A DNA stretch of 51,085 nt from Candidatus Rehaiarchaeum fermentans (lineage in GTDB: Archaea > Nanobdellota > Nanobdellia > Parvarchaeales > Parvarchaeaceae). Shown one piece after another: positions 10,655 through 40,754 of the stretch. The DNA lies in contig JAPDLT010000004.1 of NCBI GenBank assembly GCA_025920435.1, positions 1 to 51,085 on the forward strand, written 5' to 3'. The notes under the pieces are model-generated. The model was given only the letters and a program-made list of their open reading frames with translations. It had not been told where the DNA came from and ran no database searches. The position numbers and the translations under genes are program-made. The stretch's first letter is position 1. Each line of letters opens with the position of its first letter.

Positions 10655-10738
10655 GCAGAGGTAGCGAAGTGGACAAACGCACCAGGTTCAGGACCTGGTC
10701 CCATTAGGGGTTCGAGGGTTCGAATCCCTCCCTCTGCA
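10655..10738 (+). tRNA. tRNA-Leu(CAG)
   Basis: Acceptor stem GCAGAGG/CCTCTGC, anticodon arm CCAGG-TTCAGGA-CCTGG, long variable arm, GGTTCGAATCC T-arm; no intron, CCA not encoded. Confidence 0.95.
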
Positions 10739-15114: not shown

Positions 15115-16601
15115 AAGAGGTGATCCAGCCGCACGTTCCCGTACGGCTACCTTGTGGCGACTTCGCCCTTCTCATCGAGATTTGATTCGATGCTTTGAGC
15201 ACCTCATCAAATCCCGACTTGACTGGCGTGACGGGCAGTGTGTGCAGGGGGCAGGGAAGTATTCACCGCGAATCGCTATTTCGCGGTTACTACGGATTCC
15301 GCATTCATGAGGCCGAGTTGCAGGCCTCAATCCTAACCAGGCTAGCGATTAGAGGATTGGCTTCTCCTTTCGGAGTTGCATCCCATTGCCGCTAGCAATG
15401 CGATACGCGTGTAGCCCAGGGCATTCGGGCCATACTGACCTGCCGTCGCCCTCACCTTCCTCCCCCTTTCGAGGGCAGTCTCTCTATTTTGCTCGCTCCC
15501 ACGAGGGCGTTAGCAAATAGAGATGAGGGTCTTGCTAGTTACCCGACTTAACGGGACGTTTCACAATACTAGCTGACGACGGCCATGCAGCACCTCTCAG
15601 CGCGTTAGCTAAGATCTTTAGTCTGAGCTTCATCCTGCTGTCGGCCCTGGTAAGGTTCCCGGAGTTGACTCCAATTGAACCGCATATCTCACCCGTTTTT
15701 GTGCCCCCCCGCCAATTTCTTTAAGTTTCGGCCTTGCGGCTGTACTCCCCAGGTGGCTCACTTAACGCCTTCGCTTAAGCACTGCAATTCCACGAGGGAA
15801 TTGCAACACTTAGTGAGCAGCGTTTACTGCTGGGGCTACCCGGGTATCTAATCCGGTTCGTTCTCCCAGCCTTCGTCCCTCACTGTCGGGTTCGTTCTAG
15901 GGAAGCGCCTTCGCCACTGCCGGTCTTCCATGGCTCGGTAGATTTGGCTCTTACCCATGGAGTACCCTTCCCTCCTCCCGACCCCTAGCTAAAGAATATA
16001 CGCACCAGCTGCTTGGTTGAGCCAAGCAATTTAAGTGCGTATGTCTTTAGCCAGCTACGGACGCTTTAGACCCAGTAAATGTGATGACCACTCGGGCTAC
16101 GGGTATTACCGCGGGTGCTGGCACCCGTTTACCCAGCCCTTATTCTCCATGCTATTTCATCGCATGGCAAAAGTAGCATTTCTAAAGAGAAATGCTACAC
16201 GAGGAGTTGCCCTGTCACGCTTACGCGCATTGCAGAGAATTCGGGACTGCTGCACGCCGAAGCGCTGGCGCCCTTGTCTCAGTGCGCCTCTGGGGGATAT
16301 AGCGCCAACTACCCCTACCCGTCTTAGGCTTGGTGGGCCGTTACCCCGCCAACTACCTGATGGGGCACAGACCAATCCTGTGGCGAACATAACGGCAACA
16401 GTTATGCTCTTTCGCAGTTAAATCATTCCAGAAATAACTGCTATCTTGGTTTACCCTCAGTTTCCCGAGGATATCCAAGACCACAGGGTATGTTATCTGT
16501 GTTTTACCTCAGCCGTCCGCCATCTGCCTTGCCGGCAGATAAAACTTGCATGTCTCAGCCCAACTCCTCTAGTGGTCATCTCCAGCAGAATCAACTGGAA
16601 T
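15115..16601 (-). rRNA. rrs: 16S rRNA, stand-alone, intron-free
   Basis: GC-rich block. Minus strand runs from ATTCCAGTTGATTCTGCTGGA to GGCTGGATCACCTCTT with recognisable 530, 790, 915, 1400 and h45 regions; ends approximate. Confidence 0.97.
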
Positions 16602-23470: not shown

Positions 23471-23543
23471 TGCCCCGGCCGGGATTTGAACCCGGGTCTC
23501 CGGCTCGAAAGGCCGACGTCCTTGACCTCTAGACTACCAGGGC
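23471..23543 (-). tRNA. tRNA-Glu(UUC)
   Basis: GCCCTGG...CCGGGGCA acceptor, TCGGC-CTTTCGA-GCCGG anticodon arm, GGTTCAAATCC T-arm; no CCA encoded. Confidence 0.93.
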
Positions 23544-23572: not shown

Positions 23573-25318
23573 CTACTTTTTATACTTATTTAAATCTTCT
23601 ATTTCGAATGGCTCAAAAATCCTTCCATTCCCTTCATAAAACTTAGAAAGTGTTTCTACATAAAGAAGACGAGCACTTTGAATACCTGGCTCAAAAGAAA
23701 TAAGCAAAATATTAAATATTTGAGCCAGAATTAAAACCAATATAGAAACAAGAAATCCTGAAATAGAATGAGAATGAAGTATTCCTAAATCGGCAACATA
23801 AGCAATTACTACAGAAGAAAGAAGTATTCCTGCAATTCTAAGAAAAGAAAGTGTATGACTTACTACACTTATTAGGTCTATTAGATTTGATTTTTTCTCG
23901 AGAAAGATCAGGAAAATTAATGAAGTTATAAGGAGAAAGTAAGAAAAGTAAGCCAATGAACTGTAAAAACTAAGTTTGTTAAATAAATTATATCCTATAA
24001 TGCCTACACTGAGAGTAAGTAAAGCCCAGAATATTTTAGTTATTCCTTCTCTAAAATTACTGTTATAAAAAGAATTATAAGATCCTAAAAGAAAACCGAC
24101 AATTACTACAATTATTCCGATAAATCCACTAATTTCTAAAAGCAAGAAAATTTGCTTAAAAGGATTAATTAAAGGAGAATAAGGCAACTGAAAGCCAAAA
24201 TATTCATTAAAAAATATTCCAAATATTATAGCTATTAAGGAAGTGATAATCATTATTTTTGATAAATTATAAAGTGTTTCTCTCTTCATAAAAGTGTAGA
24301 AAAAAGACTTAATAAAGGAAGGTACCTTGAAATTCCATTTTCTAGAAATTTTTAGATAAATTAATAAGAATAATAAGAAAAATAAAGATCCATATCCAAC
24401 ATCCCCAATCATCATTCCTGCCATGAAAGGAAAGAGCACAATAAATAGAAAAGAAGGATCTATATCTCTATAATTAGGTATGGAGTAAAAGTTTACCAAG
24501 GTTTCTACGGGTTTAATCAATTTATGATCTATTAAAGAAGGAGGTTCCTCTTTAGTCTCAGAAATCTGTAAGTAAAACTTTATATTATTTTTATGAAGTA
24601 AATCTTCCAAATAAGTTAACTTTTCAGTAGGAATCCAAAAGCTTAATTTTACAAAGTTTTCAGATTTATCTGAAGAAATAAAGACATCAATTTTCTTTAT
24701 TTCATTTCTTAGTTTTGCAGAAAAGTATGAAACATATGGTGAAATTTGCTTTATCAATTTACTTTCTTCCTTCTTTCTATAAATAATCAATTTTTCAAGT
24801 TTTTCCTTTTCTTTTTTAAGTATTATTCTTTCGTTTTTTACGCTCGATATATTTGGAATTATTCTTATATTTTTGAGTTTATTTATTTCTTCTGGCCTTA
24901 CAAATTGCAATGATTTTCCATTTTCATCAATTACTAAAACAGGTATAAAATTTATGTCATATATTGCTGAAAAATTGATTTCAGAATTTAACAAATTTAA
25001 TGTTTCTAATTCATTATTAATTTCTCTATATCTTGAATTTAGCTTATCTATTTCTTTTCTTAATTTATCCAAAGACTCTAATTTTCTTTGAATGTAATTA
25101 AGTGAAGCTTTTTTATTGCCATTTGCTTTGATTTTAGAAATTTCGGTTAACAACCTTTCATATTTTTCTTTTTCTGAAATTATTCCTACATCACTGCCTT
25201 TTCCTTTAACTATCTGAACAATACCTTCTTTACCTATTACTTCAAGTACTTTATTTAAAGAAGATCTAAGCAAGAAAAGATCAACAAAATAAAGTCTTTT
25301 AGGTCTTATCATTTTCAA
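23573..25318 (-). CDS. atpI: A/V-type ATPase subunit I (a)
   Basis: PNYRDIDPS, GMMIGDVGYG, SHTLSFLRI (essential Arg), QSARLLYVE..KFYEGNGR.F.PF. Confidence 0.92.
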   Translation of the reverse strand: MKMIRPKRLYFVDLFLLRSSLNKVLEVIGKEGIVQIVKGKGSDVGIISEKEKYERLLTEISKIKANGNKKASLNYIQRKLESLDKLRKEIDKLNSRYREINNELETLNLLNSEINFSAIYDINFIPVLVIDENGKSLQFVRPEEINKLKNIRIIPNISSVKNERIILKKEKEKLEKLIIYRKKEESKLIKQISPYVSYFSAKLRNEIKKIDVFISSDKSENFVKLSFWIPTEKLTYLEDLLHKNNIKFYLQISETKEEPPSLIDHKLIKPVETLVNFYSIPNYRDIDPSFLFIVLFPFMAGMMIGDVGYGSLFFLLFLLIYLKISRKWNFKVPSFIKSFFYTFMKRETLYNLSKIMIITSLIAIIFGIFFNEYFGFQLPYSPLINPFKQIFLLLEISGFIGIIVVIVGFLLGSYNSFYNSNFREGITKIFWALLTLSVGIIGYNLFNKLSFYSSLAYFSYFLLITSLIFLIFLEKKSNLIDLISVVSHTLSFLRIAGILLSSVVIAYVADLGILHSHSISGFLVSILVLILAQIFNILLISFEPGIQSARLLYVETLSKFYEGNGRIFEPFEIEDLNKYKK

Positions 25319-25607
25319 ATAAGTATTTTTCCACTATTCTTCTAATTTCTTCTTTATCTAAAACTTTAATTTTATTGGCTAAATCAATATATTTCTTCGC
25401 TTCCTTCTTTCCTTCTTCTTCTCCTTTCTTTCTACTTTCTTCAATTAATCTATCTTTTAAAAGATTCGCTTCATTTTCCGTTTCGGTAATAATTTCTTTA
25501 GCTTTAGCCTTTGCTTCTTCTATTTCTTTTTCACTCCTTTGTTTTTCTTTTTCCAACAATTCTTTAAGCTTTTCTTCTTCTTTAGATAATTCTTCAATAC
25601 TAACCAT
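25299..25607 (-). CDS. atpH: A/V-type ATPase subunit H (G)
   Basis: Charged coiled coil EEAKAKAKEII located directly before atpI. Confidence 0.8.
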   Translation of the reverse strand: MVSIEELSKEEEKLKELLEKEKQRSEKEIEEAKAKAKEIITETENEANLLKDRLIEESRKKGEEEGKKEAKKYIDLANKIKVLDKEEIRRIVEKYLFENDKT

Positions 25608-26190
25608 ACTTATACTTAATTAATCTAGATTTTTCTTCTAGTTCTAAATTGTCTAAAGTTTCGATAATTTCCTTAATTTTTCTTTGACGTTCAGGAATTA
25701 TGATTCTTTCAATTGCATTTATTTTTCTATTTATATCAAATATTTCTAAAAGAAGTTTCTTCAAATTAATTTCTCGTTGTGCTAACTCAATTATTTCTTT
25801 AGCTAGCTTATAAAATTTTTCGTAAGCCAACTTAACTTCATTAGGAAGATTTTGATCTAGAATTTGATTTATTTGAGGAATTACATTAAATAAAGGTATT
25901 CCTAATACGCTATCTTTTTCAACTTGAAAATTCGCATGCTGTATTTCTACAGAATATCTATTAAATGCAACTTTACCATTAAGGGCAATTGCTAAAACTA
26001 AAGCATCTTTAGCTTCTTTAATTAAATTTGCATTGTATTCTTTTATATTCTTGCTTTCTTGTAGTAGTTCTATAAATTTTTTTATTAGTCTACTCCTACT
26101 TGACTTTAGAAGCTCAGCACTATCTTTTATAAACTTTAAATCTTCTTTTTCTTTTATTAAAGCTCCTCTACTCTTTGTTCCACTTTCCAT
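25600..26190 (-). CDS. atpD: A/V-type ATPase subunit D
   Basis: [13 protein letters not shown] and LELEEKSRL motifs; follows atpB. Confidence 0.9.
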
Positions 26191-27538
26191 ATTTGTTAAT
26201 AAATTCTTGCTTTAATCTTGTTAGTCTTTCTGGCTTAATTTCGCTTAAAACTTCCCAACCTTTATTAAGAGTGTTTTCTATTCCTCTTCTTTCATTAAAT
26301 CCTTGATTTATAAATTCCTTTTCAAATTTTCTACCAAATCTTATTAATGATAAATCATCTTCACTTAATGCACCTTCTCCAACCAATTCCATTAATCTAC
26401 TAACTTCTATATATTCTGAATAACTTGCAAATAATTGACTAGAAAGAGAACTGTGATCCTCTCTTGTTTTTCCTTTTCCTATTGCATTATTCATCATTCT
26501 AGAAATAGAAGAAAGAATATCTATAGGAGGGTAAATACCTAACTTATGTAGTCTTCTGCTCAGTGTTATTTGGCCTTCAGTTACATAACCTGTTAAATCA
26601 GGAATTGGATGAGTTATATCATCTTGTGGCATAGTTAAAATAGGTATTTGAGTAATAGATCCTTTCTTTCCCTTTAAAACTCCGCTCCTCTCGAATATAC
26701 TTGCCAAATCCGTATACATATATCCTGGGTATCCTCTTCTTCCTGGTATTTCCTTTTTTGCAGAGGAAATTTCTCTCAAAGTTTCACAGTAATTTGTAAT
26801 ATCTGTAAGTATAACAATTACATCATATCCTTTTTCGTAAGCAAGATATTCAGCAGTAGTTAAAGCAATTCTAGGTAATAGTATTCTCTCAATAGAAGGA
26901 TCTGAAGCTAAATTTATAAAGGAAACTGTTTTCCTTAATAAACCTCTTTCTCTGAATTCATTTATTAAAAATCTTGCTTCATCGCTATTCACTCCCATTG
27001 CACCAAAGACTATTAAAGTATTATCAGATACTTTAGCCTGAGAAGATATTTGAACAGCAATTTTGTTGTGGGGCAAACCAGAGCCAGAAAATAATGGTAA
27101 TTTTTGACCTTTTGCAAGTGTAATTAAACCATCGATAACTGATATACCCGTTTCAACAAAACTGTTAGGAGTTTCTCTTGCATAAGGATTAATTGGGTAT
27201 CCATTAACATCATATTCTTCTCCTTTGATTATTGATGGTCCGTTATCTATTGGATAAAATCTTCCGTTAAATATTCTTCCTATTAGCTCTTCATTCAACT
27301 TTATTGAATACGGTTTGCCTTTAGGTAGAATTCTTACACTTTTCGGATCTAAACCTAACATATTTCCAAAAACTTGAATAACAGAAATGTTTGAACTTGC
27401 ATCTATTATTTGACCTTCTAAACTACCTAAATTGCTGAAAATTTTTACAACCTCATTATATTTAGGAGCTTCTAACCCTTCTACAAAAATTAAAGAGCTA
27501 TCTACTTGAGTAATATTACTATATTCTTTGTAAATCAT
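26168..27538 (-). CDS. atpB: A/V-type ATPase subunit B
   Basis: [48 protein letters not shown]. Confidence 0.96.
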
Positions 27539-29219
27539 AGCTTAATTTCTCAAATTCTTTTTCTATTTCATCATCCTTCATAATTTTCATTTTCAAAATA
27601 GTTTGTACAAAATCATTATCCTTTATTTCATCAAATTTCTGACCTTTCAATATCTTATCCATTTCTTTATCGTACAACAATTTTATAGCTTTAACAATAA
27701 TATATTGTTTCTTTAATGAAGAATATGCATCATTTTCATCAAATGCACTTTGTATTAAAAATCCTTCCTTTATCAATCTTGCAATTTTGAGTGTTTCTTT
27801 TTCTTGATCTGGTAAAGCATTAAATCCAACTAGGTTTGCAATTTGTTGTATTTCGTCACTCTTATTTAATGTATTTAAAATCCACTCTCTTAAAAACTTG
27901 TAATCATTTCCTACACTTTTTTTAAACCACTCTTCTAAGTCATCAATGTAAAGCGAATAACTTATTCCCCAATTAATTGCTGGATAATGTCTTGAATATG
28001 CAAGTTTTGCATCGAGCCCCCAAAAGCACCTTACTAAACGCAAGGTATTTTGAGAAACAGGATCGGATAAATCCCCTCCCGGAGGAGAAACAGCTCCAAT
28101 AACAGTTACGCTTCCTTCCTTTCCAGACAATGTTTTTACTTTTCCTGCTCTTTCATAAAATTCTGCAAGCCTACTCCCTAGATAAGAAGGATATCCTTCT
28201 TCTCCAGGCATCTCTTCCAATCTTCCTGAAATCTCTCTCAATGCTTCTGCCCATCTAGATGTACTATCTGCCATAACAGAAACTTTATATCCTAAATCTC
28301 TAAAATACTCTGCAATTGTTATTCCTACATATATACTTGCCTCTCTCGCAGCTACAGGCATGTTAGAAGTATTTGCTATGAGTACAGTTCTTTGTAACAA
28401 AGGATTTCCATTACTATCTACTAAATTAGAAAAGCTTTCCAAAAGATCTGCCATTTCATTACCTCTCTCCCCACAACCTACATATACAACAATATCACTA
28501 CTAGCCCATTTAGCCAATTGATGCTGCAAAACTGTTTTACCAGAACCAAATGGCCCAGGAATTGCTGCTTTCCCTCCTTCTCCAATAGGAAACAAAAAAT
28601 CTATAACGCGTTGACCTGTTACTAAAGGAGATTTTATATCTAACTTTGATAAATACGGTCTTGGCTTTCTTATAGGCCATCTTTGATATAGAAAAACTTC
28701 TTTATTTTCGATAGTACAAATAGGGTCTTTTACTGTAAAAGAACCTTCTTTAATTGAGTTAACCTCTCCATGAAAACCCAAAGGGACAAGTATAAAATGA
28801 TCAATATTTCCCTCTCTTACTTTTCCAATTATTTGTCCTTCTCTTACTTTATCCCCTTTTTTAACGAGCGGATAAAAATCCCATTTTTTATTCGTATCTA
28901 AAGGAAAATAATCTTCTTTTCCATGAATAAATATGCCTTCTTTACTAAGCATAGAATCTAAAGCTCTTTGCAATCCATCATAAATTTTACCTAACATCCC
29001 TGGCCCCAAAACTACTGACAAAGGAAAGTGAGTCTCTTCAACTTCTTCTCCTACTCCTAAAGAAGAAGTGTCTTCATAAGCTTCTATAAAAAATTCCTTT
29101 CCCCTTATTCTTATTACTTCTCCAATTATTCTTTTTTTCCCTAGTCTTACTACTTCTCCAATTCCTGAACTCAATCCTTCAGCAACAACTAATGGACCAG
29201 AAATTCTCTTTATTGCCAT
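27519..29219 (-). CDS. atpA: A/V-type ATPase subunit A
   Basis: [36 protein letters not shown]; no intein. Confidence 0.97.
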
Positions 29220-29497
29220 AAATTATTTGGATCTATGCCTAATATTTTTTTAGTAAGATTTAGAACGTCTTCCTTTTCTCTTAGCAAAATAAAAATAGGT
29301 TTAGTAATACTTATTAATTTTGCTTCTAAATCTTCTGGAATGCCTTCTGCTATTTCTTTATCTACTATAACAATATCATAGTCCAAAAATTTGTTGTAAG
29401 ATTTTACAAATTCTTCTTTATTGATTATTTCACCATCTAAACCAACCATTCTCATTCCAATAACAAACTCTTCATCCCCTAAACAAATAACTTTCAT
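29210..29497 (-). CDS. atpF: A/V-type ATPase subunit F
   Basis: MKVICLGDEEFVIGMRMVG ... KKILGID; start placed at 29497. Confidence 0.88.
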   Translation of the reverse strand: MKVICLGDEEFVIGMRMVGLDGEIINKEEFVKSYNKFLDYDIVIVDKEIAEGIPEDLEAKLISITKPIFILLREKEDVLNLTKKILGIDPNNLWQ

Positions 29498-30191
29498 ATA
29501 ATTTATCAATTAATTCTACTTTATTTTTCAATTTTAAATAAATTATCCCTCTGATCAAGTTTATTTGATTTTCTAAAAGAATTAAATAATATAAGGCAAC
29601 CCTTACATCGTTATAGTAAGAAAGATATATTACGTTTTCTTTTGAAAGATACTTGGAAATTGAAAAACCAGCTTTTGTTATAGTATTGTCAAGATTCTTG
29701 ATATAAAAATCTTCTAATAAATTGAAAAGTTTTGGATAATCTTGAGTATATAAGGACGGAGAAAATCTTTCTGCTAAGAAATTAACTATTTCATTGATAT
29801 TTGAATTTATTAAAGAAATATAATCTAACTTATTTATAGTTGTCATACCAACAAATCTGTTAATTACTTCAATTTTTCTATCTGAAATCTTTATTTCTTC
29901 CTTGAGTAACTTCGCAGATATTATTGCTTTTATGTTTTCTAAATCAAATTTTAATAAATAAGAGGAAAGAACTTTTCTATCTAAAGGGTCTGCGAGAAGG
30001 TAAAGATCTTGTGCTTCTTTAAAAAAATAATTTAAAGAGTTGGCTTCAAATTCTTCTATATTATCTGAAACATAATTTATTTCATCTTTTATTTGAGAAA
30101 TGCTCTTCTCTTTTAGTGAAAGTAATTTTTCTTTGCTCATTAAATTGCTGATTTTAGCTCTGCTTGCTCCCACTAAGCTCATATATTTCAT
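29472..30191 (-). CDS. atpC: A/V-type ATPase subunit C (short)
   Basis: RAKISNLM, FDLENIKAII, ENQINLIRGII; lies between atpE and atpF. Confidence 0.8.
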   Translation of the reverse strand: MKYMSLVGASRAKISNLMSKEKLLSLKEKSISQIKDEINYVSDNIEEFEANSLNYFFKEAQDLYLLADPLDRKVLSSYLLKFDLENIKAIISAKLLKEEIKISDRKIEVINRFVGMTTINKLDYISLINSNINEIVNFLAERFSPSLYTQDYPKLFNLLEDFYIKNLDNTITKAGFSISKYLSKENVIYLSYYNDVRVALYYLILLENQINLIRGIIYLKLKNKVELIDKLYESYLFRG

Positions 30192-30690
30192 TTAAAATTT
30201 TATCAATTTTTTCGGAAAGTATAGTATCAAAACTAAAATCTAATATTTGAGTTCCTTTTTTTGCAATAATTCCTCCTATAATGCTTATTTCTTTTGCCCC
30301 TTTTATAAAGGAAATATCTCTTTTATTTACGTAAATTTCGTAGTCAGAAAATTTACTAGCTAAATTTTTCATAAAATTCTTATATTTTTCTGTTTGAGTG
30401 ATTTCTTCTGCAATGGAATAAATTTGATTAACATATTCCTTTTCTACCTCTCCGGCTTTTGAAAGATAATAATCAATACCTTCCTGCACTTTCATTTCTT
30501 TAGACTTAATATATTCTTGATCAGCTAAGATTTTAGCACTCTCTAAAATATCTTTCTTTATTTTCTCAGCTCTTTCTTTTGCTTCATTTATTATTTTAAT
30601 CTTTTCTTCCTCAGTCCTTTTATTTATCTCTTCTATTTCTTTCTTTTTTTCCTTTATTAACTCTTCTAACAACTCCTTTACATCGCTCAT
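30154..30690 (-). CDS. atpE: A/V-type ATPase subunit E
   Basis: N-terminal coiled coil, IIGGIIA...DFSFDTIL. Confidence 0.88.
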   Translation of the reverse strand: MSDVKELLEELIKEKKKEIEEINKRTEEEKIKIINEAKERAEKIKKDILESAKILADQEYIKSKEMKVQEGIDYYLSKAGEVEKEYVNQIYSIAEEITQTEKYKNFMKNLASKFSDYEIYVNKRDISFIKGAKEISIIGGIIAKKGTQILDFSFDTILSEKIDKILNEIYELSGSKQS

Positions 30691-30912
30691 TTAAAGTATA
30701 TTCAGCAAAATCATTAGCGCTACTACAAATCCTATTATCCAAAGTGTTTCTGGCAATACGAAAAATAGAAGTACTTTACCTAGCATATCCGGTTTCTCTG
30801 CTATAACTCCCATTCCAGAAGATCCAACTCCGCTTTGAGCAATACCTGTACCTATAAGACCTCCCGCCAATGCAATTGCAGCTGCAATTGCTTCACTCCC
30901 ACTAATCACCAT
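30691..30912 (-). CDS. atpK: A/V-type ATPase proteolipid subunit K (c), single hairpin
   Basis: GIAQSGVGSSGMGVIAEKP...VLPETLWIIGF with the ion-carrying Glu. Confidence 0.93.
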   Translation of the reverse strand: MVISGSEAIAAAIALAGGLIGTGIAQSGVGSSGMGVIAEKPDMLGKVLLFFVLPETLWIIGFVVALMILLNIL

Positions 30913-31180
30913 TTTAAAGCTTCTAATTAAAGAAATATAAGCTTTATTAACTTCTTTGTTAACTTTTAAATTATAGGGTCTTAAATTCTTTTTAAGAAAT
31001 CTATTATGTAAGGGGAGAGCTTAACCTTTATTATTTTGGCTAAAAAGATTTTCAAAAAAGATTGTTTAAGTAATTAGTAAATATTTTAATTAAATCAAGG
31101 TGAATTAATTAAAAAAAACTAAGTTGAAATTTATAAGTTATAATTAAAAAGCAGAAAAAATAACTAACTCTTAAATAAAT

Positions 31181-31573
31181 TCATCCTATCAAATCTTTCT
31201 TAAGAGTTTTGAAGTAAGACACTAAATCAGTCCTAGTCTTGTCGAAATAAGATTTTAAGTCTACCTTTAATGTATTGAAGTAAGGTTTAAAGTATGTCTT
31301 TATTTCAGTAGGCAATTTACGTAAGTCTTCTATTACGGTTTTATAAGATGATTTTAAATCATTTTTTATTTGAGCAGGAATTTGCCCTAAATCCTTCTTA
31401 AGTGTATTGTATGCATTCAAAAAGTCGGATTTTAATGTATTATATATTTGACGAAAGTAAGATCCTATTTGACGAAAGTAAGATCCTCCCAAAGAGTTGC
31501 TTTGCTCTCCTCCACTTGCTTTTAATTTATCTGCCAGAGTTTCATTTTTAGTTGTTGGCTTTTCACTTCCCAT
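31181..31573 (-). CDS. Hypothetical protein with eight 11-residue amphipathic repeats
   Basis: 130-aa ORF with TATAAA about 25 nt upstream of the ATG; repeat consensus [YFP]xx[LI]KxD[LF]xxx. Confidence 0.8.
   Translation of the reverse strand: MGSEKPTTKNETLADKLKASGGEQSNSLGGSYFRQIGSYFRQIYNTLKSDFLNAYNTLKKDLGQIPAQIKNDLKSSYKTVIEDLRKLPTEIKTYFKPYFNTLKVDLKSYFDKTRTDLVSYFKTLKKDLIG
31445..31486. repeat. Perfect 21-bp tandem duplication
   Basis: TATTTGACGAAAGTAAGATCC x2, encoding GSYFRQI twice. Confidence 0.95.
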
Positions 31574-31620
31574 TTGATATTATGAAGTCTAGTAGTATTT
31601 ATATCTTTTAAGTGGTAAAT

Positions 31621-39692: not shown

Positions 39693-40754
39693 ATGAAAGC
39701 CGAAGAAAGTCCTTCATTGAAACCTGCTAGCAATTTTAATGATTATGCAAAAAATATAGAAAACTTTAACAAGTCATTAAACAGTGCATTTTTAAACGTA
39801 TATAAAAAAATAAACGAAATCGAAAATTCAGTAGATAACATAAAAAAGTTGACAGACAAAATAAATGAAATAGAAAACTCTATAAAAACTCTAAAGACTC
39901 TATCTAGCAAAGATATAGATTCTATAGTTAATGAATTATATTCTCAACTGCAAAATAAAGTAATTAATACTCAAATAAATAAGGAAGAAATAATTAACAT
40001 AATAAAAGCGCAATATGATCAAAGAATTAATCAATATGAACAAAAAATAAATCAAATTTATGATTATGTAAGCAAAGTGGGACAAGCTGTTAATTCCATA
40101 GTTGAAAAAGTAAATCAAAACACTGATTCTATAAACAAATTAAATGATGCTTTGAATTCAAAGAATGCAGAGCTTTCTAAATCTGTATCAGAAATAGAAA
40201 AAGAAGTAAGAGATCTTAATGATGAAGTCAAGAAACAAATTAATAATTTAAATGAAAATCATCAAAAGGAAAATGAAGAAATACAAAATAAACTAAATGA
40301 ATTAGAAGGAAAAACTGCAAAGATGAGCGAAGATTTATATAAAGGCATACCTCAATTAAATGACCTGGCTCAAAGAACAACAACAATTGAACAAAAGTTA
40401 TCTTCCATAGAAGCAACAATAGAGAGATTGACTTCGGTTTTAAATTCAGACACATTAGACATATCTACATTTAAAACACGAATAGACACAATGGCATCTC
40501 AAATGAACGCTCTTAATGATGTAATAAATAAAGCACAACAAGATATATTAGAATTTGTCAAAGATTCTACTTCACTCGTTGGAATATTATCCAGGATCAA
40601 TCCGGATGCAATTCAGACTTCTATAAAAACATTAGAAAATGAGCTTAGTTCAACTCAACAGCAAGTTAATAAATTAGTTGATCTAATAAATACAATGCAA
40701 AAAGAATTAGCAGAGCTTAAAGCAAAATCAATTACAAACTTACCTAAGCAATAG
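39693..40754 (+). CDS. Long coiled-coil protein
   Basis: Continuous heptads, no TM or signal peptide; internal repeat KINEIENS x2. Confidence 0.8.
   Translation: MKAEESPSLKPASNFNDYAKNIENFNKSLNSAFLNVYKKINEIENSVDNIKKLTDKINEIENSIKTLKTLSSKDIDSIVNELYSQLQNKVINTQINKEEIINIIKAQYDQRINQYEQKINQIYDYVSKVGQAVNSIVEKVNQNTDSINKLNDALNSKNAELSKSVSEIEKEVRDLNDEVKKQINNLNENHQKENEEIQNKLNELEGKTAKMSEDLYKGIPQLNDLAQRTTTIEQKLSSIEATIERLTSVLNSDTLDISTFKTRIDTMASQMNALNDVINKAQQDILEFVKDSTSLVGILSRINPDAIQTSIKTLENELSSTQQQVNKLVDLINTMQKELAELKAKSITNLPKQ

Follow-up and report, generated by a model that had tools for sequence, protein, structure and literature searches.

A predicted protein of tandem 11-residue amphipathic repeats, apparently confined to one archaeal genome, resembles lipid-coating proteins in design rather than ancestry

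We analyzed a contig of 51,085 nucleotides (nt) from Candidatus Rehaiarchaeum fermentans (JAPDLT010000004.1, assembly GCA_025920435.1; the whole stretch is called the window here, and its source genome G000). Our subject is a complete open reading frame (ORF) at 31181–31573 on the minus strand, supported by its translation and codon log-likelihood, which starts with ATG and encodes a basic protein of 130 residues (14.9 kDa, pI 9.6, net charge +9, grand average of hydropathy –0.71). A spacer of 47 nt (31574–31620) separates this ORF from the aIF-1A gene upstream, and an AT-rich spacer of 268 nt (30913–31180) separates it from atpK downstream. Because the protein contains tandem 11-residue units, we refer to it as the repeat protein. 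An earlier inspection of the letters alone, hereafter the sequence-only reading, had taken it to be an apolipoprotein-like protein that carries lipids or remodels membranes.

The first 28 residues (31490–31573, minus strand) form a polar tail, predicted to be disordered from AlphaFold2 confidence values and Kyte-Doolittle hydropathy. Mean hydropathy over the first 30 residues is –1.07, in keeping with the polar N-terminus described earlier. An exact 21-bp tandem duplication follows (31445–31487; Tandem Repeats Finder: period 21, 2.0 copies, 100% matches), which places the peptide GSYFRQI twice in succession at residues 30–43. Residues 44–130 (31184–31444, minus strand) consist of eight gapless 11-residue units, the last of them 10 residues long, and agree letter for letter with the repeats listed in the sequence-only reading. 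Positions 1, 4, 8 and often 11 of the unit had been described as hydrophobic, and the corresponding columns indeed read YYPYPFFF, LLIVILTL, FLLLFLLL and AISLYYY; taken as 8, 11, 1 and 4, these are positions a-d-e-h of a hendecad. Position 11 becomes aromatic in the later units. Lys at position 5 and Asp at position 7 hold up equally well, with Lys or Arg in seven of the eight units at the former (KKKIKKRK) and Asp in seven of the eight at the latter (DDDDYDDD). The prolines said to lie 22 residues apart are P66 and P88; P97 is an additional one, and proline opens only two of the eight units. Amphipathic sequence begins already near residue 29, before unit 1. The top-scoring 19-residue Kyte-Doolittle window reaches –0.13 (hydropathy only, no dedicated predictor), and the protein has no transmembrane-like or other hydrophobic stretch, as expected from the earlier claim that it lacks a transmembrane segment and a signal peptide.

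Both sequence self-similarity and hydrophobicity follow the 11-residue period. When the protein is compared to itself at a shift of 11, the BLOSUM score is 86, a value reached by none of 2000 shuffles (best over shifts 2–40; mean –39, maximum 5), and 22 of the 76 residue pairs at this shift within residues 44–130 are identical. For the same residues, the hydrophobic moment has its maximum (0.38) at 98.0 degrees, which equals three turns per 11 residues, and drops to 0.08 at the heptad angle; the maximum was matched in 0 of 5000 shuffles. The 11/3 moment of this ORF is the highest among the 905 ORFs of at least 60 residues in the 547-kb genome. The straight amphipathic 11/3 face, for which the sequence-only reading had proposed a helical wheel and moment calculation, is thus confirmed.

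On the 11/3 wheel, positions 11, 4, 8 and 1 make up a hydrophobic stripe of Leu, Ile, Phe and Tyr that is rich in aromatics. The center of the stripe is flanked by Lys (position 5) at about +82 degrees and by Asp (position 7) at about –82 degrees, and the polar face has a mixed center of Asn, Ser, Lys and Thr. Tyr is 1.8-fold enriched and sits on the stripe, and the protein favors Asp over Glu, opposite to the trend of the genome. Helix propensity, on the Pace and Scholtz scale, is average for the proteome (score 0.545, 49th percentile) and clearly lower than that of hendecad coiled coils encoded in the same genome, AtpE (0.39) and AtpH (0.37). A HeliQuest-type discriminant ranges from 0.36 to 1.61 over 29 windows, most of which fall in the 'possible lipid-binding' band, with three above 1.34.

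Several lines of evidence indicate that the ORF is very probably a real gene. Its codon log-likelihood is 0.29 in frame and between –0.75 and –1.49 in the other five frames; 246 long ORFs have 0.35 ± 0.10. Length by itself is insufficient: at 30% G+C, the chance that a stop-to-stop interval is this long is 2.4e-5, from which we estimate that a genome of this size would contain about two such frames by chance. The repeat units are more telling. Their DNA identity to one another is only 30–67%, codon positions agree less at the third (0.39) than at the first (0.54) and second (0.55), and the conserved Asp, Lys, Leu, Tyr and Thr residues use different codons in different units. These data suggest that the repeats are old and that the residue pattern has been kept by selection rather than produced by recent copying.

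The gene also appears to carry its own signals. A TATA box of its own had been claimed, and a TATA-like motif (WTATAWAW) does start at –31 from the ATG, within the 47-nt spacer, and makes a plausible promoter; across the genome, the motif has a density of 1.3 per strand-kb, with an enrichment at –40 to –12 upstream of 416 long ORFs. Oligo-T runs lie right after the stop codon, at the start of the 268-nt spacer, and look terminator-like. Separate transcription seems the best explanation of this arrangement, although a look for RNA data on the gene turned up none. Neither flanking spacer contains an Rfam match at gathering score.

Strain variation was taken from contigs of public sequencing runs from other studies, one of which (X9) has no coverage of the ORF. 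Contig pieces from runs X3 (31465–31619) and X4 (31159–31407) are identical to the window. Run X2 holds a strain that is ∼95% identical. Covered pieces of the ORF show six differences in 223 nt, compared to 30 differences and one gap in 548 nt for the piece 30658–31205 of the same contig. The 268-nt spacer, with 20 listed substitutions and one insertion, is the most diverged part of the stretch. We count the smaller number of differences in the ORF than in the neighboring spacer in favor of a real gene.

The main X2 contig lacks exactly 33 nt (31206–31238, codons 112–123), which is one repeat unit, such that both frame and register are preserved; a minor contig of the same run retains it. Hence, the number of units still varies between strains. 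Listed residue changes in the X2 ORF are T115S, D83E, A67V and L52S, none of which falls at positions 1, 4, 8 or 11, and position 7 remains acidic. None of the listed X2 pieces spans 31462–31491 (record 2 ends at 31461, and records 4 and 5 start at 31492–31495), and this gap over the 21-bp duplication could reflect either assembly trouble or copy-number variation. A minor X2 contig skips 63 nt (31091–31155) in the spacer between the repeat gene and atpK.

The repeat gene appears to be an orphan, with no relative in any other genome searched. A word-indexed search of 5.8 billion proteins of near lengths returned 17 candidates, none at E 0.01 or better. Exhaustive phmmer comparison with 1.84 billion representatives gave 31 matches at E ≤ 1e-3, among them no full-length relative; the best reached 2e-10 (P0002), and the remainder were at 1e-6 or weaker. 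We rejected P0002, an unannotated protein of 1290 residues matched in 12 stretches, because its E-value was judged to be inflated by repeats. Its likeness is limited to a motif of ∼25 residues within its 38-residue repeats (KPTxNxTLxDKL[KR]AxxG), which resembles the N-terminal tail (residues 5–27, 31505–31561) with 45% identity over 29 residues and a pairwise BLASTP E of 0.001. This resemblance may be due to chance. Pfam was run on the 15 strongest of the 31 matches: three, each of ∼1000 residues, carry PhageMin_Tail over cut-off, and most of the 15 show sub-threshold Baculo_PEP_C, ApoLp-III or Apolipoprotein matches in their repeat regions. Two others, P0020 and P0021, are short proteins built of 'ELKSDI'-type 11-mers. 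Since such look-alikes share the periodicity and a few motif letters, we read them as probable cases of convergence among 11-mer repeat proteins rather than of common descent.

Searches closer to home were equally negative. Among the genomes of 40 relatives, a protein search returned only matches of E 0.01 or worse, and a profile of the 22-residue unit found nothing in the 39 family genomes other than G000, so that the protein is present in 1 of 40. Scans of genome contigs and of viral contigs gave no relative or match. One metagenome-contig locus (L026) proved to be a false positive, namely a high-GC ORF of more than 1000 residues that has only 'HSDFLNAYNT' in common with the repeat protein. 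A genome-contig scan with aIF-1A recovered only Nitrosopumilus and Nitrosopelagicus loci of 39–46% identity, which are uninformative for synteny. For the only other genome of the genus (G001, 82% complete), we scanned all 42 contigs (414,570 bases including overlaps; 819 ORFs) for 11/3 periodicity and found nothing with an aromatic stripe. The top scorer there is a Lys/Glu-rich ORF of 92 residues on the contig with the ATPase genes, presumably AtpH (read without a family search).

Annotated families and structures gave no firm link either. On the repeat protein, Pfam matches are sub-threshold only, led by Prominin (20.7 bits), ApoA-II (15.3) and Apolipoprotein (12.3). Searched by sequence, the PDB yields 6h9l_A, an uncharacterized repeat protein, as its best match (E 0.036), and then apoA-I chains at non-significant values (E 0.14–1.2). 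In the ESM Atlas, the best feature score is 0.76, and the structural rows are unrelated. A literature search for archaeal proteins with 11-mer amphipathic repeats, apolipoprotein-like proteins or lipid-binding helices of DPANN archaea found none, judging by titles and abstracts.

Blocks of housekeeping genes flank the repeat gene on both sides. The upstream block comprises the genes for MCM, an OB-fold protein, aIF-2 beta, DUF424 and aIF-1A. Beyond the 268-nt spacer, the downstream block is an operon for an A-type ATP synthase (23573–30912, minus strand), which runs K-E-C-F-A-B-D, continues with an H/G-like ORF of 102 residues and ends with I. The H and I genes usually precede K in archaea, and here they are located after D. 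The 102-residue ORF (25299–25607), which lies between atpD and atpI, has a weak V-ATPase_G_2 match and hence already accounts for subunit H. Subunit C is short (239 residues) and covers only positions 5–189 of a 339-position profile; subunit I has 581 residues. In G001, the block from MCM to aIF-1A is conserved, and the ATPase operon is on a different contig. A convergent ORF of 241 residues comes next after aIF-1A, and an ORF of 76 residues precedes the ATPase operon; we take these, without a family search, to be RNA polymerase subunit D-like and Sm-like, respectively. With the two blocks on separate contigs and next to other neighbors, it follows that the repeat gene sits at a rearrangement junction specific to G000. 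In the family, atpK is present in 11 of the 15 genomes searched, and in none of the 10 atpK loci read is there a similar gene upstream.

The sequence-only reading leaned on the assumption that the organism has lost lipid synthesis. This assumption holds for G000 (78% complete), in which GGGP synthase (PF01884), UbiA prenyltransferase (PF01040), CDP-archaeol synthase (PF01864) and polyprenyl synthase (PF00348) have no match each, with control archaea positive. Across the 40 family genomes, GGGP synthase has no match and UbiA has matches in three, two of them over the cut-off. Synthesis of archaeal lipids appears to be beyond the family as a whole. The archaeon itself is tiny and probably host-dependent. 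Comparing the distribution of the repeat protein with lipid-gene loss, a check put forward with the sequence-only reading, gave a result against a general role in handling host lipids: loss is near family-wide, compared to a single genome with the protein. Since the two distributions do not track each other, the protein is not the lipid-scavenging device of the group at large. It could still be a local invention for lipids.

AlphaFold2, run without an alignment, gave a low-confidence model (mean predicted local distance difference test, pLDDT, 62; predicted template modeling score, pTM, 0.41). Residues 1–30 have pLDDT below 50, as would befit a disordered head. Helices are predicted at 29–62, 67–94 and 99–129, with breaks at 63–66 (G63/P66) and 95–98 (P97). 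Foldseek found no match in the PDB at E 0.001 or better, and exhaustive structural alignment (VIA-align wide) returned only generic three-helix bundles with Z up to 10.0, compared to an advised level of 13 for helical bundles.

By design, the repeat protein belongs with the tandem 11-residue (3-11) amphipathic repeat proteins, and on sequence grounds it falls outside every named family against which it was tested. The label apolipoprotein-like stands in part. What survives is the 11-mer, partly proline-punctuated design: like exchangeable apolipoproteins, the protein has tandem 11/22-mer periodicity, proline at the start of some 22-mers and a predicted monomer that resembles a helix bundle. 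Homology does not survive, in that all Pfam scores are below their cut-offs (PF01442, 12.3 versus 90 bits; ApoA-II, PF04711, 15.3 versus 27; ApoLp-III, PF07464, unlisted at E ≤ 10). Nor does the class A charge layout, in which basic residues reportedly line both polar/non-polar boundaries with acidic residues at the center of the polar face (Segrest); here Lys is on one flank and Asp on the other. Apolipoproteins are also secreted with a signal peptide, whereas the N-terminus of the repeat protein is polar.

A closer parallel may be found among intracellular lipid-coating proteins. Passages of Copic et al. (PMC5889406) state that 11-mer repeats form 3-11 helices which fold on lipid in apolipoproteins and alpha-synuclein, and they describe perilipin 4 as 29 tandem 33-mers with an asymmetric charge distribution, the lysines being on one side. 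Binding to lipid droplets was lost there in a charge-swap mutant, and the authors propose that the helices contact one another on the lipid surface. The repeat protein shares with the alpha-synuclein/perilipin type the tandem 11-mers with a straight amphipathic face and, with perilipin 4 as those passages portray it, 11-mers able to form a 3-11 helix, a Thr-rich composition, one-sided lysines and the absence of a transmembrane segment. It differs in size (∼100 repeat residues, compared to 29 tandem 33-mers) and in its archaeal host, an organism in which no lipid droplets are known. The Pfam Perilipin and Synuclein families are unlisted at E ≤ 10. The hydrophobic face of perilipin 4 is much weaker, whereas that of the repeat protein is strong, aromatic and interrupted by proline.

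Two further kinds of 11-residue repeat are relevant. Passages of PMC6131620 give the a-d-e-h pattern as defining right-handed coiled coils, including ATPase stalk subunits. The repeat protein shares this pattern, and the lack of a heptad signal, with hendecad coiled coils such as the E-G/H stalk of A/V-ATPases and tetrabrachion. It departs from them in that G63, P66, P88 and P97 lie inside the repeats rather than leaving a long uninterrupted helix, in that its core is aromatic and not Ala/Leu-rich, and in its lower helix propensity relative to AtpE and AtpH of the same genome. Phage tape-measure proteins, for their part, are described in passages of PMC3271669 as having 11-mers with an aromatic residue at a fixed position and as gaining and losing 33-bp units. 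Aromatic-marked tandem 11-mers and turnover of 33-bp units recur in the repeat gene, and PHROG tape-measure families match the protein weakly (E 0.003–0.005). It is far shorter, however (130 residues compared to ∼1000), has no PhageMin_Tail (PF10145) match, is flanked by aIF-1A and the ATPase operon rather than viral genes, and uses Tyr/Phe/Pro as the marker, not Trp or Phe as in those passages. P0020 and P0021, which have a sub-threshold CCDC90-like match (PF07798), share with it the core [T/E]-L-K-S-D-[I/F/L/M] of the 11-residue unit; these matches are weak (E ∼2e-4 in 1.84 billion proteins) and probably driven by repeats. P0020 has a hydrophobic C-terminal tail, transmembrane-like on our reading of its sequence, which the repeat protein lacks, and the DUF1640/CCDC90-like family PF07798 is unlisted for the latter at E ≤ 10. 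The repeat protein is nearest to perilipin 4 in charge layout and to tape-measure repeats in repeat dynamics, and its resemblance to lipid-coating proteins is one of design, not of ancestry.

Tentatively, we favor a helix that folds conditionally and attaches to a membrane or another hydrophobic surface, an account we hold to be possible and not yet probable. From the straight aromatic stripe over three helices of ∼30 residues, the oppositely charged flanks, the disordered head, the lack of an export signal and the weakly helix-forming composition, we infer conditional folding and burial of the stripe. The gene product would be small, basic and cytoplasmic, and would combine a polar, disordered head of ∼28 residues with ∼100 residues of 3-11 (11/3) amphipathic helix, which Gly and Pro (Gly63/Pro66, Pro88 and Pro97) would divide into three segments of ∼30 residues each. 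Alone, it would be only marginally folded, either loose or as a weak three-helix bundle. The stripe would become buried once the protein meets a hydrophobic surface, for which the host-derived membrane of the cell itself, on its cytoplasmic side, is the most probable candidate. Neighboring helices could then line up through their Lys and Asp flanks to form a coat, much as proposed for perilipin 4.

A number of observations weigh against this account. The repeat gene is missing from all 39 other family genomes, which equally lack GGGP synthase, and the protein shows no homology to any lipid-binding family in Pfam. Asp on one flank is not ideal beside an anionic lipid. As a single chain, the AlphaFold2 model is a three-helix bundle like generic bundles; the a-d-e-h pattern, according to the same passages of PMC6131620, equally defines right-handed coiled coils; and a soluble bundle would explain the pattern without a membrane. 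Finally, four of the seven listed ORF differences in X2 are non-synonymous, compared to 0 of 9 in atpK and 0 of 2 in aIF-1A, which suggests that constraint on the repeat protein is weak. One caveat here is that these numbers are small and count listed X2 differences only, with 20 further differences in the stretch outside the list.

The strongest competing explanation is a small soluble protein whose helices pack against one another, whether within a single chain as a three-helix bundle or between parallel chains as a hendecad coiled coil, and which has a structural or adaptor function and no membrane role. We rate this bundle or oligomer as possible and nearly as likely as the surface-binding helix. 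The hydrophobic positions fit the a-d-e-h hendecad, the best structural matches of the three-helix model are three-helix bundles (Z 8–10), and Lys and Asp on opposite flanks would suit salt bridges between parallel helices. The best PDB sequence match (6h9l_A) is itself a repeat protein, and the look-alike P0020 joins 11-mer repeats to its CCDC90-like match. On the other hand, the repeats contain one glycine and three prolines, of which two fall at a core position, and two bulky aromatics would have to share the adjacent d and e positions of the core. AtpE and AtpH have a much higher helix propensity than the repeat protein, whose value is average, and the model that suggests a bundle is of low confidence.

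Less likely still is a gene of recent origin and narrow taxonomic range that does little or nothing specific, in other words a repeat expansion at a rearrangement junction that is tolerated and possibly poorly expressed. Several points favor this reading: no search found a relative, in G001 the flanking clusters are on different contigs with nothing comparable after aIF-1A, the exact 21-bp duplication and the one-unit indel point to ongoing repeat turnover, the share of non-synonymous strain differences is high, and about two ORFs of this length are expected by chance per genome. Arguing the other way, units of 30–67% DNA identity keep their residue pattern through synonymous codons, codon use is typical of the genome, the ORF is less diverged between strains than the adjacent spacer, and the indel keeps frame and register.

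A stress protectant similar to late embryogenesis abundant (LEA) group 3 proteins or hydrophilins, which would fold on drying or heating and shield membranes or proteins, seems improbable. The 11-mers of LEA proteins are said to have flanks of opposite charge (the model of Dure, 1993), as do those seen here, and the disordered head, the low-confidence fold and the hydropathy of –0.71 would be in character. Against this, LEA_4 (PF02987) is unlisted for the repeat protein at E ≤ 10, the stripe is far more hydrophobic and aromatic than is typical of LEA 11-mers, and no relative has the gene. As for a role in the adjacent A-type ATP synthase, as an accessory subunit or an additional one of the peripheral-stalk type, suggested by the position of the gene 268 nt upstream of atpK-E-C-F-A-B-D-H-I, by the hendecad nature of stalk subunits and by the frequent placement of atpH and atpI upstream of atpK in archaea, it is very improbable, given that the 102-residue ORF with its V-ATPase_G_2 match already lies between atpD and atpI and gives no BLASTP alignment with the repeat protein, that the latter has no V-ATPase_G match (PF16999) and a residue composition unlike AtpE and AtpH, that the repeat gene has its own TATA-like motif and oligo-T runs, and that a similar gene precedes none of the atpK loci read in other genomes.

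Returning to the surface-binding helix, its most specific form ties it to the supply of lipids. Host-dependent ultrasmall archaea must take their membrane lipids from the host. Which lipids are acquired, and how, is described as having remained unclear in the abstract of a recent study, and no transfer protein is named in the passages searched (Nat Commun 2024;15:3405). With a helix design of the lipid-coating type, a genome without lipid-synthesis genes and an acquisition route that remained unclear, the repeat protein is a cheap candidate. One could imagine that a lipid-auxotrophic, DPANN-like archaeon evolved an exchangeable lipid-coating protein of its own, de novo, by expansion of a 33-bp repeat, and that this functional analogue of perilipins or apolipoproteins binds isoprenoid lipids taken from the host, or stabilizes or shuttles them, on the cytoplasmic side of the membrane or where host and symbiont touch. 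We consider this scenario a long shot. Without an export signal, the protein would probably stay in the cytoplasm, where it is not obvious how it would touch host lipids directly, and a gene confined to one genome among those searched cannot explain lipid scavenging across the group. If true, it would represent an independent and recent archaeal invention of the 3-11 lipid-binding helix. What the data show is more modest: the locus is a clear case, found in nature, of a gene of narrow taxonomic range made of 11-residue units, with a residue pattern under selection and a variable number of units, and it is useful for studying the birth and tuning of amphipathic repeat proteins.

Other features of the contig and genome can be noted. 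A complete archaeal 16S rRNA gene lies at 15115–16601 (minus strand), no part of the window matches 23S rRNA at gathering score, and two tRNA genes are present at 10655–10738 (plus strand) and 23471–23543 (minus strand). The top shift-11 self-similarity score belongs to an ORF of 63 residues on another contig of G000 (C31, 46911–47102, minus strand), composed almost entirely of Glu, Asp, Lys and Asn, whose acidic tail has E/D runs and spaced Trp, Tyr and Phe; we read this score as an effect of low complexity. Within the window, an ORF of 353 residues at 39693–40754 (plus strand) has a strong hydrophobic moment of the heptad type (0.49 at the 7/2 angle) and helices rich in Asn, Gln, Lys and Glu, as expected of a classical coiled-coil protein.

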